Virus record (IMG/VR): IMGVR_UViG_2713896773_000001
Origin: a virus
Lineage: Duplodnaviria; Heunggongvirae; Uroviricota; Caudoviricetes
DNA length: 28,284 nt
Reading direction: 5' to 3' (one strand)
Part shown: in pieces, positions 1,729-5,209 of the stretch
How positions within the stretch are numbered: position 1 is the first letter of the stretch
Layout: every line of letters starts with the position of its first letter
Notes under the pieces: model-generated
Database searches by the model: none
Seen by the model: only the letters and a program-made list of their open reading frames with translations
Told to the model about the DNA's origin: nothing
Made by a program: the position numbers and the translations under genes

Positions 1729-2059
1729 ATCAGCAGCAGAGCGCAAAGCCGCCCAGCGAGCCCGGCAAGCTGCTGCTGGTGGTCGTAAATTTGAGCTCAT
1801 GCTTGATACGCAGGAACTGGAGATGCTGGAGCGCAATTGTGCATCACGCCGCCCGGGGCGAGCGCCGTATGAAATGAGCGAATACGTCGCGATGCTGATC
1901 CGCCAGGACGATGCCCGCGTTCGTGGTCGCATTAAGTCAATCAGCGCGAACCGCTGCGGTAAATGCGGAGATGCGCTGCCGGTTAAGTCGTGTCCGTGCG
2001 ACGGTGATTCGAAATGCTGGGTTACGCGTGGCTGGCATGAAACTAAATTAGCATTGTGA
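1721..2059 (+). CDS. hypothetical protein with basic N-terminus and C-terminal Cys-rich (CxxC...CxC) putative zinc ribbon
   Basis: ORF overlapping the upstream stop; RCGKCGD...CPCDGDSKC cysteine cluster. Confidence 0.5.
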   Translation: MAKSAAERKAAQRARQAAAGGRKFELMLDTQELEMLERNCASRRPGRAPYEMSEYVAMLIRQDDARVRGRIKSISANRCGKCGDALPVKSCPCDGDSKCWVTRGWHETKLAL

Positions 2060-2068
2060 CATGTCACA
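2055..2068. promoter_or_regulatory. perfect 14-bp palindrome TGTGACATGTCACA overlapping the stop codon of the upstream gene; candidate protein-binding site
   Basis: Exact inverted repeat seen directly; function unknown. Confidence 0.3.
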
Positions 2069-2086
2069 ATGTAATCAATAACATAC

Positions 2087-2109
2087 AAGCCTCTTCGGAG
2101 GCTTTTTTT
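2087..2109 (+). terminator. rho-independent terminator (AAGCCTC-TTCG-GAGGCTT followed by a T-run); tR2-like by position upstream of ninB
   Basis: GC-rich stem with tetraloop followed by about 7 T on the + strand. Confidence 0.6.
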
Positions 2110-2204
2110 GTCGGCGTTAAATTGCTTTTGCCACAATGCCCATCCATAATATCCCTGTCAGCCTGAACAACTGACACCAGGACATTCGCGCCACGGAGAA
2201 CACC

Positions 2205-2303
2205 ATGGCGCAGCACCACCAGCTTAAACACATTCGCCTGACGTTATCCGACGTCAGCGATTTGTCGTATCTGTCGCTTAACCTCTTCGGGGGTGACGCG
2301 TGA
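2205..2303 (+). CDS. candidate small ORF (32 aa, MAQHHQLKHIRLTLSDVSDLSYLSLNLFGGDA) translationally coupled to ninB
   Basis: GGAG 6 nt upstream of the ATG; its stop TGA overlaps the ninB GTG start (GTGA). Below the ORF-track size cutoff; no homology claimed. Confidence 0.3.
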   Translation: MAQHHQLKHIRLTLSDVSDLSYLSLNLFGGDA

Positions 2304-2752
2304 GCCAACAATTCCACCTCGTTAACGAAAGCGTTAAGCAGAACGCTATCAACTACATTCGTCAGTTGCCAGTCGACAGTAAGCGCCCGCTGATACTCGA
2401 CGTCAAAGAGTCGACGCGCACCGCTATTCAAAATCGCAAGATGTGGCCGCTACTGAAAGATCTTTCCGACCAGGTTCTCTGGTTCGGCAATAAATACGAT
2501 TCCGACGACTGGAAAGACCTCATCACCGCGCTGGTGGCGAAGACCAAAAAGCAGGAACAGCGAATGGCCCCCGGGCTTGATGGCGGCGTCGTGATGTTCG
2601 GCCAGCGCACCAGCAAAATGACCATTCCCCAGATGGTAGAGGTCATCGAGGCGATTTACTGGTTCGGCACCCAGCAGGGCGTCACATTCAGCGAACAATC
2701 CCGCAATGAAATCGAGTGGGCAAAGCGCTGGGGGAACAGCAATGCGAAATAA
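2300..2752 (+). CDS. ninB: NinB-type recombination protein
   Basis: Clear similarity to lambda NinB over its whole length (for example QNRKMW, FGQRTSKM, EWAKRWG blocks); GTG start. Confidence 0.9.
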   Translation: MSQQFHLVNESVKQNAINYIRQLPVDSKRPLILDVKESTRTAIQNRKMWPLLKDLSDQVLWFGNKYDSDDWKDLITALVAKTKKQEQRMAPGLDGGVVMFGQRTSKMTIPQMVEVIEAIYWFGTQQGVTFSEQSRNEIEWAKRWGNSNAK

Positions 2753-3041
2753 CCCCAGTCAGAAAACCTACCGCAGCAAAAAATGGCTCGCCGCTGTCGG
2801 GCAGATCGAGCAGTGCGTGTTATGCGGTTCGTGGGGGACACAGGTAGCGCATCGCAATGAAGGCAAAGGCATGGGCCTGAAAGCCGATGATTGCGCCACG
2901 GCGGCGATCTGCGTTTGCTGCCACGACAGCATCGACAACGGCAGCAAGCTATCGCGAGACGAACGCCGCCAGCTGATGGACCGCGCTATCGTTCTGACCG
3001 TTATCCAGATAGCCCGCCTTGGGCTGGTGGTGCCAGCATGA
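2742..3041 (+). CDS. Cys-rich nin-region protein (DUF1364-like)
   Basis: ATG at 2742 overlaps the ninB stop; CVLCG...CVCCH cysteine pattern as in nin-region DUF1364 proteins. Family assignment from memory, not searched. Confidence 0.55.
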   Translation: MRNNPSQKTYRSKKWLAAVGQIEQCVLCGSWGTQVAHRNEGKGMGLKADDCATAAICVCCHDSIDNGSKLSRDERRQLMDRAIVLTVIQIARLGLVVPA

Positions 3042-3397
3042 AAATTTACGACATCACGCCGATCGGCAAGCCCCGTATGACCCGCGCCGACAAATGGAAA
3101 ACACGGCCTGCGGTCATGCGTTACCGCGCATTCTGCGATGAAGCACGTCTGCGCAAAATCAATCTCCCTGAGTCCGGCGCGCATATCACCTTCGTTATGC
3201 CAATGCCTCCGAGCTGGAGCAAAAAGAAGCGTGAACAGCTCAACGGCAAGCCGCACCAGTCAAAACCAGACTGCGACAACATGCTTAAAGCACTGATGGA
3301 TGCCCTGTTTGATGATGATTCCAGTGTCTGGGATTGTCGCATTACAAAGCTATGGGGCGAGAAAGGCCAGATCATCATTCGGGAGAACGGACAATGA
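3038..3397 (+). CDS. rusA: RusA-family Holliday junction resolvase
   Basis: PDCDNMLKALMDALFDD matches the RusA catalytic D-x-DN...K...DAL motif; position downstream of ninB in the nin region. Confidence 0.8.
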   Translation: MKIYDITPIGKPRMTRADKWKTRPAVMRYRAFCDEARLRKINLPESGAHITFVMPMPPSWSKKKREQLNGKPHQSKPDCDNMLKALMDALFDDDSSVWDCRITKLWGEKGQIIIRENGQ

Positions 3398-4077
3398 CAC
3401 GCACCGATATTAACAATTACCAGAAAGCGTCTGTTGAGCGTACCAACCCGCAAAACGCCTGGGTGACGCTGGCAGCAGCACCACGCAGATCTTACCTGGG
3501 GAAATACCGCCGACTGACACCATCGCAAAGCCGTTGGGTTCGTTCGTTGCTGAACAACTGGGGCGGCATGTATGGAGGCAGCGGAATAGAACACCTTTCA
3601 GGTGGCGGTGGTATGTGGTCAATGATATTGACCGGCTGGACTGGCGAACAGCAGGAGCGGATCGCTACCGTACTGTCTGGTCTGCGTAAAATTGGCTATA
3701 CCGGAGATGCGTTGTTTGAGCAGGCTAAAGCCATCATCTGGCCGAAGAAATCACTTTCTGACCTGATCGGCAACGCCGGGGATCAAGAGGAAGCTGCATT
3801 CATGGAGGCTATCATCCTGAAGTCCTTCAAGCCGGGGAATCCCGTGTATGAGATAGGGAAGGACTATTACACCTGGAGGAAAACCATTAATGACATGGCA
3901 CGGTGGATGCAATATTACTACGCGCCGTTTCTGACCGAAAAGCAATGTATTGACCGCGTGCGCTGGTGTATTGAGTTGTTTAATTCTGCTGTCTTCTTCA
4001 CGTTAAAAGATGAATTTGGCTTCGAAAATGCAAAAACTTGCGAAAAAGACTTGAAAACGAGTTTTGAAACTGCATAA
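3394..4077 (+). CDS. putative late-gene antiterminator (Q-like), assigned mainly by position
   Basis: ATGA overlap with rusA; last gene before a promoter/terminator pair and the lysis cassette, as for Q in lambdoid phages. Sequence family not confirmed. Confidence 0.5.
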   Translation: MTRTDINNYQKASVERTNPQNAWVTLAAAPRRSYLGKYRRLTPSQSRWVRSLLNNWGGMYGGSGIEHLSGGGGMWSMILTGWTGEQQERIATVLSGLRKIGYTGDALFEQAKAIIWPKKSLSDLIGNAGDQEEAAFMEAIILKSFKPGNPVYEIGKDYYTWRKTINDMARWMQYYYAPFLTEKQCIDRVRWCIELFNSAVFFTLKDEFGFENAKTCEKDLKTSFETA

Positions 4078-4078
4078 T
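4051..4078 (+). promoter_or_regulatory. candidate late promoter (pR'-like): -35 TTGAAA (4051-4056), -10 CATAAT (4073-4078), 16-bp spacer
   Basis: Sigma70-like hexamers at the 3' end of the Q-like gene, about 85 nt upstream of a strong terminator. Confidence 0.4.
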
Positions 4079-4161
4079 TCAGATATGCTCGGACGTCAAA
4101 GGCGAAAGAGCTTACCCACCAGCGGAGATGCCTTGCGCGGAGCGGTGTGAACCACATTTAA

Positions 4162-4188
4162 GCCCTTGCAGAAATGCAGGGGCTTTTT
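4162..4188 (+). terminator. rho-independent terminator (tR'-like): 9-bp stem, GAAA loop, TTTTT
   Basis: GCCCTTGCA-GAAA-TGCAGGGGC followed by 5 T. Confidence 0.65.
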
Positions 4189-4195
4189 GCATTCA

Positions 4196-4270
4196 GGGTC
4201 AGAAGCACAGAGGTTGTGAGATCGGCTGTTAACCGATTGGTCGAAGGTTCGAATCCTTCCTGTCCCGCCA
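4196..4270 (+). tRNA. tRNA-like element, anticodon GUU (Asn-type); acceptor and D stems imperfect, possibly degenerate
   Basis: Hand fold: canonical T-arm GAAGG-TTCGAAT-CCTTC, perfect anticodon stem ATCGG/CCGAT with loop CTGTTAA, 3' CCA present, total 75 nt. One T-T mismatch in the acceptor stem, one G-A in the D stem, and A at position 8. Confidence 0.5.
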
Positions 4271-4320
4271 AATACCTACCAGGACCATAAGAGCAAAAGC
4301 TCAACGCACTACCCTCTATT

Positions 4321-4344
4321 GCCCACCGCGCCGTGGGCTTTTTT
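4321..4344 (+). terminator. rho-independent terminator (GCCCAC-CGCGCC-GTGGGC followed by TTTTTT)
   Basis: Perfect 6-bp GC stem followed by 6 T; lies between the tRNA-like element and the holin gene. Confidence 0.65.
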
Positions 4345-4452
4345 ATTGCAGGCCGCAGATATCATTTTCAGATGCCATGTAGCAATCAGAGTCTGACGGC
4401 CTTTCCCCTACAAACACACACAGCACCATCCGGAAAATCGGAGGTGAGGCCT

Positions 4453-4776
4453 ATGAAAATGCCATACAAACAAGATTTCATCGCTGCGCTACTTGCCGCC
4501 AAGGAGCAGGGTATTGGTGCAATGCTGGCTTTTATCATGGCGTATCTGCGTGGTCGCTATAACGGCGGCGCGGTAACAAAAACGCTAATTGATGCGCTGA
4601 TGTGCGCGATGATTGCCTGGTTCGTTCGTGACCTTCTGGACTTTATCGGCCTGAGCAGCAACCTCGCCTACATAGCCAGCGTCTTTATTGGATACATCGG
4701 CACCGATTCGATCGGCAATCTGATTAAAAAACTTGCAGCAAAAAAGGCGGGAGTTGACGATGCAAACCAGTCCTGA
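4453..4776 (+). CDS. S: class I holin, lambda S type, with MKM dual-start motif
   Basis: Near full-length similarity to lambda S (107 codons, for example [24 protein letters not shown] blocks); GGAGGTGAGG upstream; ATG-AAA-ATG dual start. Confidence 0.9.
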
Positions 4777-5209
4777 CGGAATTGCTCTGATAAAAAAATT
4801 TGAAGGTTGTCGGCTGACTGCTTACCCCGACCCCGGAACGGGAGATGCGCCGTGGACCATCGGCTATGGCTGGACCCATCCGGTTGACGGAAAGCCAGTA
4901 AAGCGCGGTATGACTATCGACCAGCAAACCGCTGACAGGCTTCTGAAAACAGGGCTTGTTGGTTATGAGAATGACGTGCTGAAAGTTGTCAGGGTGAAGC
5001 TGACACAAGGCCAGTTCGATGCCCTGGTGTCGTTCACGTATAACCTCGGTGCGCGGTCATTGTCGACATCGACTCTCCTGCGAAAACTCAACGCCGGAGA
5101 TTACGCTGGTGCAGCCGATGAGTTCCTGCGCTGGAATAAAGCTGGTGGGAAGGTGCTGAATGGGCTGACACGTCGGCGGGAGGCAGAGCGAGCTCTGTTC
5201 CTGTCATGA
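4760..5209 (+). CDS. R: endolysin, T4/P22-type lysozyme (GH24)
   Basis: FEGCRL...DPGTG...WTIGYG catalytic region and ...[11 protein letters not shown]-terminus typical of P22/P21-type lysozymes. No N-terminal hydrophobic (SAR) segment. Confidence 0.9.

Follow-up and report, generated by a model that had tools for sequence, protein, structure and literature searches.

We found that the window, by which we mean the whole stretch of 28,284 bases that was analysed, most probably carries at 4196-4270 a working phage tRNA-Asn(GUU) that is the first gene of the late operon; judging from its sequence, its fold and its relatives, we put the probability of this reading at about 0.8. The gene is an ordinary member of a known and already annotated kind. 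An earlier note on this DNA had described a tRNA-like element with a GUU anticodon at this place and had left the choice between a functional but unusual phage tRNA-Asn, a decaying tRNA and a tRNA-derived element, proposing as checks a tRNA predictor and a comparison with the host tRNA-Asn genes. ARAGORN returned a tRNA-Asn (gtt) on the plus strand at exactly these coordinates, the sole tRNA in the window, and the Rfam model RF00005 matched positions 4196-4267 over its full length (E = 1.5e-09). Where the note had named a predictor score below the pseudogene thresholds as the outcome that would speak against a tRNA, we obtained a tRNA call and 55.4 bits against a gathering score of 29 bits. 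A permissive Rfam scan of 3900-4600 gave no credible second or degraded tRNA and no other known RNA. The features of the region are as follows.

2891-3397: RusA gene (PHROG match)
3334-4077, plus strand: gene for a Q-like late antiterminator (phrog_753, anti-termination protein Q-like, E = 1.5e-57); the open reading frame is given as listed and the true start codon may be further downstream
4051-4078, plus strand: pR'-like site, putative late promoter, TTGAAA, 16-nt spacer, CATAAT (promoter scan, 10/12 matches)
4160-4188, plus strand: late terminator tR', an 11-bp GC-rich hairpin at 4160-4185 followed by a T-run (terminator scan)
4196-4270, plus strand: tRNA-Asn(GUU) gene, 75 nt, CCA encoded (ARAGORN, Rfam, fold, covariation and an annotated copy with 100% identity)
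4321-4344, plus strand: second intrinsic terminator, hairpin at 4321-4338 followed by T6 (terminator scan)
4453-4776, plus strand: holin gene, starting Met-Lys-Met (phrog_126, holin/anti-holin, E = 2.1e-39)

Locally, Q, pR', tR' and the late genes are arranged as in lambda, and the promoter also has the lambda position relative to Q and tR'. The -10 hexamer of the pR'-like site overlaps the Q stop codon, the T-run of tR' ends 7 nt upstream of the tRNA, and the holin gene is the first protein-coding gene of the late operon, being followed by endolysin, Rz spanin, Rha and terminase genes (PHROG matches). The tRNA thus has the place of a late-operon tRNA module, past Q, pR' and tR', ahead of the lysis genes and on their strand. 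Both the placement between the late terminator and the holin gene and the presence of terminators on the two sides, as the earlier note had them, were borne out by the scans. No promoter of its own was found for the tRNA, the pR'-like site being the only promoter-like site in 3500-5000, in a promoter scan that by itself is weak, with one site found against 1.6 in shuffled sequences.

The pR'-like site at 4051-4078 probably acts as the late promoter and, since the tRNA begins 7 nt past tR' and has no separate promoter in the scan, read-through dependent on Q is the natural inference for its expression. RNA polymerase would start at 4051-4078 and, when Q is absent, would halt at tR' just short of the tRNA; when Q is present, read-through would yield the tRNA together with the lysis and virion genes. 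The host RNase P and the 3'-end processing enzymes would then free the 75-nt tRNA, its CCA being already encoded. The bacterial asparagine identity set consists of the three anticodon bases (G34, U35, U36) and G73 (PMC9976931), and the window tRNA has this set complete: the anticodon GTT occupies 4228-4230 and the discriminator G is at 4267. Across the family, hardly any variation occurs in the anticodon loop CUGUUAA or at G73. Because the E. coli asparagine identity set is complete, the host AsnRS would be expected to charge the phage tRNA, and the charged tRNA would decode AAC and AAU.

Direct reading of the sequence confirmed each of the structural features that had been listed for the element. 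The acceptor stem GGGTCAG/CTGTCCC has T4199 facing T4263 (U4·U69), position 8 is A (4203), and the D stem GCAC/GTGA has G4205 facing A4219 (G10·A25). The anticodon arm (ATCGG and CCGAT around the loop CTGTTAA) has a perfect 5-bp stem, the T arm (GAAGG and CCTTC around the loop TTCGAAT) is perfect and has GGTTCGAATCC, and the discriminator G73 is followed by the encoded CCA. The conserved core of elongator tRNAs comprises U8, A14, G18-G19, A21, U33, T54-Psi55-C56 and A58; in the window tRNA, A14, G18-G19, U33 and the GTTCGAATC T loop are present and position 8 departs from the core. A further oddity, not listed in the note, is U at position 21 (4215), where the usual base is A. At positions 8, 21 and 4:69 the gene is at odds with features shared by almost all tRNAs, and we counted A8, U21 and U4·U69 against the reading of a working tRNA.

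The minimum-free-energy fold was the cloverleaf, both for the tRNA alone (-22.4 kcal/mol, compared with -26.1 kcal/mol for the common variant of the family) and within a transcript context of 261 nt, in which the two flanking terminator hairpins were also retained. Against shuffled sequences the fold z-score was -0.59 for the window tRNA and -1.71 for the host tRNA-Asn; fold energy alone is uninformative here, since the value for a genuine host tRNA-Asn is also unremarkable.

Over the 411 bases that were compared, the window and Citrobacter phage Omnitron are 100% identical; the Omnitron record carries no annotation, and the gene call fills this gap for a tRNA whose relatives are already annotated. 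The tRNA is 92-95% identical in coliphage HK639 and in Klebsiella and Enterobacter phages, with 17 phage records at 92% or more (megablast, blastn), and several of the Klebsiella and Enterobacter phage records annotate it as tRNA-Asn. Copies occur in 79 of 5,426 complete E. coli genomes, always chromosomal and single-copy, most of them 90-96% identical (blastn) and all annotated as tRNA-Asn by the NCBI pipeline. Four of these 79 genomes have copies at least 99% identical; at least two of these copies are 100% identical, and one of the two, inspected in RefSeq, has no pseudogene flag. All four E. coli copies whose surroundings were inspected lie between phage Q-type and lysis genes. The comparison with the host genes gave 59% identity to E. 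coli asnT/U/V and, together with the presence in only 79 of the 5,426 genomes, ruled out a copy derived from the host.

Pattern scans of GTDB genomes and IMG/VR collected at least 142 copies of the window type (family A), the genome hosts being Serratia, Klebsiella, Enterobacter, Cedecea, Pantoea, Atlantibacter, Lelliottia, Citrobacter and Apirhabdus. One identical tRNA sequence accounts for 101 of these at least 142 copies, and the 50-nt segment upstream comes in 78 versions. The order Q, tRNA, holin was found in every annotated relative, though the Q and lysis genes come from different families. When the upstream contexts of the at least 142 family A copies and of 121 copies of a second subfamily (family B, the SfI/21 type) were compared, a GC-rich hairpin with a T-run, varied in sequence, preceded the tRNA by 7-10 nt in nearly every one of the most common contexts listed. 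The tRNA is a mosaic module beside differing Q and lysis genes, tightly coupled to the upstream tR'.

Among the family A copies, tRNA-Asn is always the first gene of a small and variable tRNA array: it stands alone in 46 of the at least 142 copies, is accompanied by Thr(UGU) in 38 and by Arg(UCU) in 33, and in the remaining copies belongs to rarer combinations with Gly(UCC), Met(CAU), Phe and Ser. The segment with the second terminator is common only to the Omnitron-like lineage (8+2 of the at least 142 copies), and other phages have further tRNAs at that place. The idea of an independently inserted unit, which the note had drawn from the flanking terminators, consequently holds in part: the tRNA behaves as a module that is found near differing Q and lysis genes, but its upstream terminator is the coupled tR', a promoter of its own was not found in the scan of 3500-5000, and the downstream terminator is specific to the lineage.

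In a decaying pseudogene, disabling mutations would be accumulating and decoding would have been lost. Such a reading could draw on the three or four departures from a canonical tRNA (U4·U69, A8, U21 and G10·A25), on the Rfam score of 55.4 bits against 63.9 for the common allele and 72.6 for the host asn genes, on the fold z-score of only -0.59 and on the rare family members that are clearly broken, namely hybrids with a foreign 3' half (L007, L122, L016/L055) and one copy with C33 in place of U33 (L128). We nevertheless consider it quite improbable, because U4·U69 and A8 are fixed in the family: IMG/VR scans that demanded another base at position 4 or at position 8 gave no match, and relatives in lytic phages share A8. 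The identity elements, the anticodon loop, the T loop, the CCA and the fold are all intact, 101 of the at least 142 copies are identical, the residual variation is compensatory, and RefSeq sets no pseudogene flag. In Rfam score, the tRNA-Asn of SfI (55.3 bits) equals the window tRNA and the host serU (57 bits) is close to it.

Of the departures, only G10·A25 is recent and specific to a lineage. The common allele has C25 and hence a normal G10-C25 pair; A25 is found only in the Omnitron-like lineage, in 8 of the at least 142 copies, which are the window and seven other loci with flanks 91-99.9% identical to it. The window variant persists unchanged in these seven loci, which besides the Citrobacter phage include prophages in E. 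coli and Apirhabdus genomes, a further point against decay. The derived G10·A25 mismatch accounts for the lower Rfam score and the weaker fold of the window allele (L093, which shares A27-U43 with the window but not A25, scores 62.7 bits). At pair 27:43 we found the alleles U27-A43 (L005), U27·U43 (L031), A27-U43 (L093) and A27-U43 with A25 (window), a series consistent with a compensated swap from U27-A43 to A27-U43 in the window's own lineage, which again speaks against decay. As to the two remaining oddities, A8 co-occurs with U21 in the relatives, and relatives with U8 have A21; the predicted fold lengthens the D stem by an A14-U21 pair. This suggests that A8/U21 may represent a rearranged 8-14-21 triple or a 5-bp D stem, rather than damage. 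With U4·U69 and A8 as family traits, the options of a decaying tRNA and of a tRNA-derived element find no support, and the functional but unusual phage tRNA-Asn is the option supported by the predictor calls, conservation, covariation and identity set. A comparison with a diverged relative (L048) was dropped as an argument for purifying selection, since its 9% divergence is concentrated at 3070-3444 and the neighbourhood of the tRNA is identical.

The second subfamily, the SfI/21-type tRNA-Asn, of which IMG/VR holds more than 120 copies, is 69.7% identical overall to the window tRNA; it has the identical acceptor stem GGGUCAG/CUGUCCC including U4·U69 and the same anticodon loop, G73 and CCA, and its D, anticodon and T stems all differ, seven pairs being changed on both sides. 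We aligned 40 distinct sequences, comprising both subfamilies and three relatives from lytic phages. The cloverleaf pairs were formed in 92.2% of the cells against 79.4% in shuffles, none of 500 shuffles reaching the observed value, and 9 of the 18 tested pairs change on both sides. As a control, sliding the 3' partners by 1-3 columns lowered the pairing to 34-54%. Covariation thus supports the cloverleaf. In 34 of these 40 distinct sequences positions 4 and 69 do not pair, so that the U4·U69 mismatch is itself conserved.

The same data bear on the possibility that the element is a tRNA-like processing signal acting in cis, at which RNase P and 3' processing would cut the late transcript after tR', removing the leader and defining the 5' end of the lysis mRNA, with decoding being incidental. 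The position 7-10 nt past a terminator in essentially all copies, the failure to find a promoter of its own and the constant first place in the array would fit this, as would the acceptor stem, the substrate of RNase P, which is identical, U·U included, across two subfamilies that differ in the other three stems. An element that served processing alone would have no need of a GUU anticodon, of G73 or of an invariant CUGUUAA loop, yet these are the most conserved parts. The partner tRNAs, whose anticodons differ, are just as well formed, and lambda and P22 have no tRNA at this position (PMC8022706). We therefore hold this explanation to be very unlikely.

A third explanation would make the locus an attB-like target at which the integrases of satellites, or of other mobile elements, could dock, or else a hotspot where recombination reshuffles the modules of the late operon. 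Classic targets of integration include tRNA-Asn genes, the homology of one relative (L047) stops at 4273, 3 nt past the CCA, and some copies have replaced 3' halves. On the other hand, the 28 kb window holds no second copy of the tRNA 3' end even with 3 mismatches allowed, none of the annotated relatives has an integrase adjoining the tRNA, the sequence is unlike the host asn 3' end (59% identity overall), and the hybrids resemble deletions between tandem tRNAs, all of which makes a docking site highly improbable. A working tRNA-Asn remains the reading that we follow below.

The closest known systems include HK639, the Klebsiella and Enterobacter lambdoid phages (among them vB_Kpn_Chronis, GZ7 and ST11-VIM1phi8.1) and E. 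coli prophages, which carry the same family, 92-100% identical in the close phage copies; the HK639 tRNA-Asn is 94.7% identical to the window tRNA. Copies of the HK639/Klebsiella type share with the window the order Q, tR', tRNA, lysis genes as well as U4·U69, A8, U21, the anticodon loop, G73 and CCA. Compared with them, the window has a minor allele (8 of the at least 142 copies) with A16, A25 and A27-U43, and has no second tRNA, but a private terminator instead. For SfI, Sf6, ST64T, PS3, 21 and L, published work already describes a late operon that opens with a tRNA-Asn(GUU), frequently accompanied by Thr(UGU) (PMC3636060; PMC8022706). In phages 21, SfI, Sf6, ST64T and L it lies at the same spot, directly past the terminator, with the same acceptor stem, loop, G73 and CCA as in the window. 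Unlike the window tRNA, the phage 21/SfI type has the canonical U8 and A21 and a 4-nt variable loop, and differs in the other three stems, mostly with compensated pairs.

Relatives were also found in virulent phages, the tRNA being 85.7% identical in Aeromonas AhSzq-1 (Demerecviridae) and 78.9% identical in Salmonella pSal-SNUABM-01. Both share with the window A8-A9, U21, the U28-A42 pair and G73. Unlike the window, they carry the tRNA in large multi-tRNA arrays that do not lie past a Q-controlled terminator, and they have U4·G69 in place of U·U. The T5 tRNA-Asn was ruled out as a close relative, being 62.5% identical and of a different lineage. The tRNA-Asn of AhSzq-1, pSal-SNUABM-01, T5 and the window all lack the host U39 and the host CNG motifs.

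As to what the phage gains, we tentatively favour, at somewhat short of even odds, the reading that the gene would provide a replacement copy sustaining asparagine decoding when Toprim-class nucleases (P2 OLD, PARIS AriB) cut or deplete the host tRNA-Asn. Among the E. coli tRNAs that PARIS AriB cuts and depletes are Lys(UUU) and Thr(UGU), with Asn(GUU) as a validated, biologically relevant secondary target; the cut falls at 40|41, the determinant in the host tRNA-Asn is U36AAUC, and U39A abolishes AriB cleavage of tRNA-Lys (PMC12409363). The Lys, Thr and Asn tRNAs of T5 together give near-complete rescue from PARIS, to which the T5 tRNA-Asn contributes (PMC12409363). P2 OLD cuts tRNAs with CNG at 28-30 and 40-42 and with A37, and the host tRNA-Asn is one of three comparison tRNAs in the assay of its cleavage kinetics (PMC12445682). 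Experiments showed that phages 21 and HK446 encode Thr(UGU) tRNAs able to counter OLD (PMC12445682; bioRxiv 10.64898/2026.07.10.737580).

We compared these determinants with the sequences at hand. The host tRNA-Asn carries both signatures, U36AAUC|C41 on the one hand and C28GG/C40CG with A37 on the other. The window tRNA reads U36AACC|G41 and U28CG/C40GA, and with C39, G41, U28 and A42 both motifs are missing; all the phage tRNA-Asn compared are likewise without both host signatures. The CGG/CCG motif persists in the window tRNA, shifted by 1 nt toward the loop (29-31/39-41). Such differences argue only weakly for a role in defence, as any diverged tRNA could differ at these positions. The role is further weakened by three points: the Omnitron-like phage has no Thr(UGU) or Lys(UUU) tRNA, the primary targets of OLD and AriB; the OLD library screen enriched only Thr tRNAs and not Asn tRNAs (PMC12445682); and the tRNA-Asn of phage SP15 gave no rescue from PrrC170.

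A broader form of this idea, which we regard as possible but rather doubtful, starts from the arrays, in which the commonest partner is Thr(UGU), so that Asn with Thr(UGU) matches two of the three shared nuclease targets. Together with the Thr(UGU) that usually comes next, the late-operon Asn(GUU) may form a counter-defence cassette of cleavage-resistant tRNAs directed against the OLD and AriB nucleases of competing P2-like prophages and P4-like satellites. The oddities U28-A42, C39, G41, A8/A14-U21 and U4·U69 would then be adaptations that escape the nucleases and spare AsnRS and ribosome function, and the two terminators could allow leaky read-through of tR', giving a little tRNA in lysogens without lysis. 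If the Asn tRNA does add resistance, the tRNA content of prophages would help to predict conflicts between phages, and between phages and satellites, in Klebsiella, Enterobacter, E. coli and Citrobacter; and A8/U21 together with U4·U69 would be examples of how a tRNA can be reshaped to evade nucleases and still serve translation.

Alternatively, the benefit could be an extra supply of tRNA for virion proteins that are rich in asparagine and biased to AAC, a plausible reading to which we give clearly less than an even chance. The late genes have 45.5 Asn codons per 1000, 65% of them AAC, where E. coli usage is about 39 per 1000, and Asn makes up 6.4% of the open reading frame taken as the capsid gene, encoded by 15 AAC and 5 AAT. 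Codon compensation is weak as an explanation, given the modest enrichment of a common codon and the four host asn genes in E. coli. In the published work on SfI, the authors detected no bias in codon usage and described what the Asn tRNA signifies as 'not clear' (PMC3636060). The phage L authors proposed a supply for the AAC-rich capsid gene, and remarked that nobody knows if excision releases the tRNAs from the late mRNA (PMC8022706). The supply reading is thus weakened by AAC and AAU not being rare, by the number of host genes and by the absence of codon bias for the SfI authors.

The Shiga-toxin phage 933W offers a comparison, carrying ileZ-argN-argO upstream of stx, between Q/pR'/tR' and the late genes. 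Its tRNAs read the rare codons AUA and AGA/AGG, which fits codon compensation, whereas the GUU anticodon of the window tRNA reads common codons that the host serves with four gene copies. What the family presents is a tRNA for common codons which hundreds of temperate enterobacterial phages keep, near-perfectly conserved, at the head of their late operon.

The acceptor stem was compared between the window-type tRNA-Asn (family A) and the second subfamily, in which a tRNA-Asn of the SfI/21 type is paired with a tRNA-Thr(UGU), using the following sequences:

Window 4196-4202 and 4260-4266, plus strand: acceptor stem of tRNA-Asn(GUU)
L148 1239-1313: tRNA-Asn of a locus of the second subfamily

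The two acceptor stems are 100% identical, U4·U69 included, although overall identity is only 69.7%, and G73 and the CCA end are likewise common to both subfamilies. The remaining three stems all differ, with changes that are mostly compensated. Either selection on the stem sequence itself or repeated re-use of the ends by recombination may account for this identity. The homology of IMGVR_UViG_2791355277_000001 to window 2000-4273 (96.9%) ends at 4273, that is, 3 nt past the CCA, so that, as read from this alignment, the 3′ end of the tRNA is a mosaic breakpoint.

A few family copies (L007 3001-3075, L122, L016 and L055) are hybrids, consisting of the 5′ two-thirds of the Asn tRNA followed, from the T loop or the 3′ strand of the acceptor stem on, by the sequence of another tRNA. 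They are probably deletions between tandem tRNAs with a common GGTTCGAATCC T loop. The L007 copy is still labeled tRNA-Asn by PGAP, with an annotated length of 67 nt.

The tRNA core was compared at three positions:

Window 4203, 4209 and 4215, plus strand: tRNA positions 8, 14 and 21
L008 1501-1577 and L009 1501-1576: relatives

Sequence comparison showed that U21 accompanies A8 in the window family and in both Aeromonas AhSzq-1 and Salmonella pSal-SNUABM-01, and that A21 accompanies the canonical U8 in the SfI type and in Pseudoalteromonas C7. The pattern resembles a swap within the 8-14-21 base triple. In the predicted window fold an additional A14-U21 pair extends the D stem to 5 bp and leaves a loop of 5 nt.

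The partner Thr(UGU) tRNAs are of at least two types, as documented by the comparison of:

L005 3081-3154: tRNA-Thr(UGU) accompanying a family A copy
L148 1319-1391: tRNA-Thr(UGU) of the SfI/21 type

The SfI/21 type carries G27·A43 and U28-A42, both of which the study of the P2 tRNA nuclease OLD (PMC12445682) ties to resistance. The commoner family A type has C28-A29-G30/C40-U41-G42, an intact CNG pair, given which it would be predicted to be OLD-sensitive.

In coliphage HK639 (L001), a tRNA-resembling sequence with the anticodon loop CTTCCAA, ending GGTTCGATTCCCGCTGCCCGCTCCA, lies directly 3′ of the Asn tRNA (about 2596-2680) and looks like a Gly-UCC tRNA. It is called by neither ARAGORN nor Rfam, although at 15 other loci a Gly(tcc) call was obtained with ARAGORN. 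The downstream sequence ATTCTGCATCTGTCGTAG... is common to 12 family copies. Between the tRNA and the lysis genes of HK639, amid four annotated terminators, there is also a hit to STnc100, an sRNA family of Rfam (2938-3143; 52.6 bits, threshold 47); no such hit occurs in the window.

The window holin gene starts with ATG-AAA-ATG (Met-Lys-Met, 4453-4461), which is the same dual-start arrangement as in lambda gene S, where it yields holin and antiholin. Upstream, in the interval 4051-4190, the pR′-like promoter shares part of its -10 hexamer CATAAT (4073-4078) with the stop codon of Q (TAA, 4075-4077). Termination at tR′ would leave a short transcript of about 100 nt, to which lambda 6S RNA would be the analogue.
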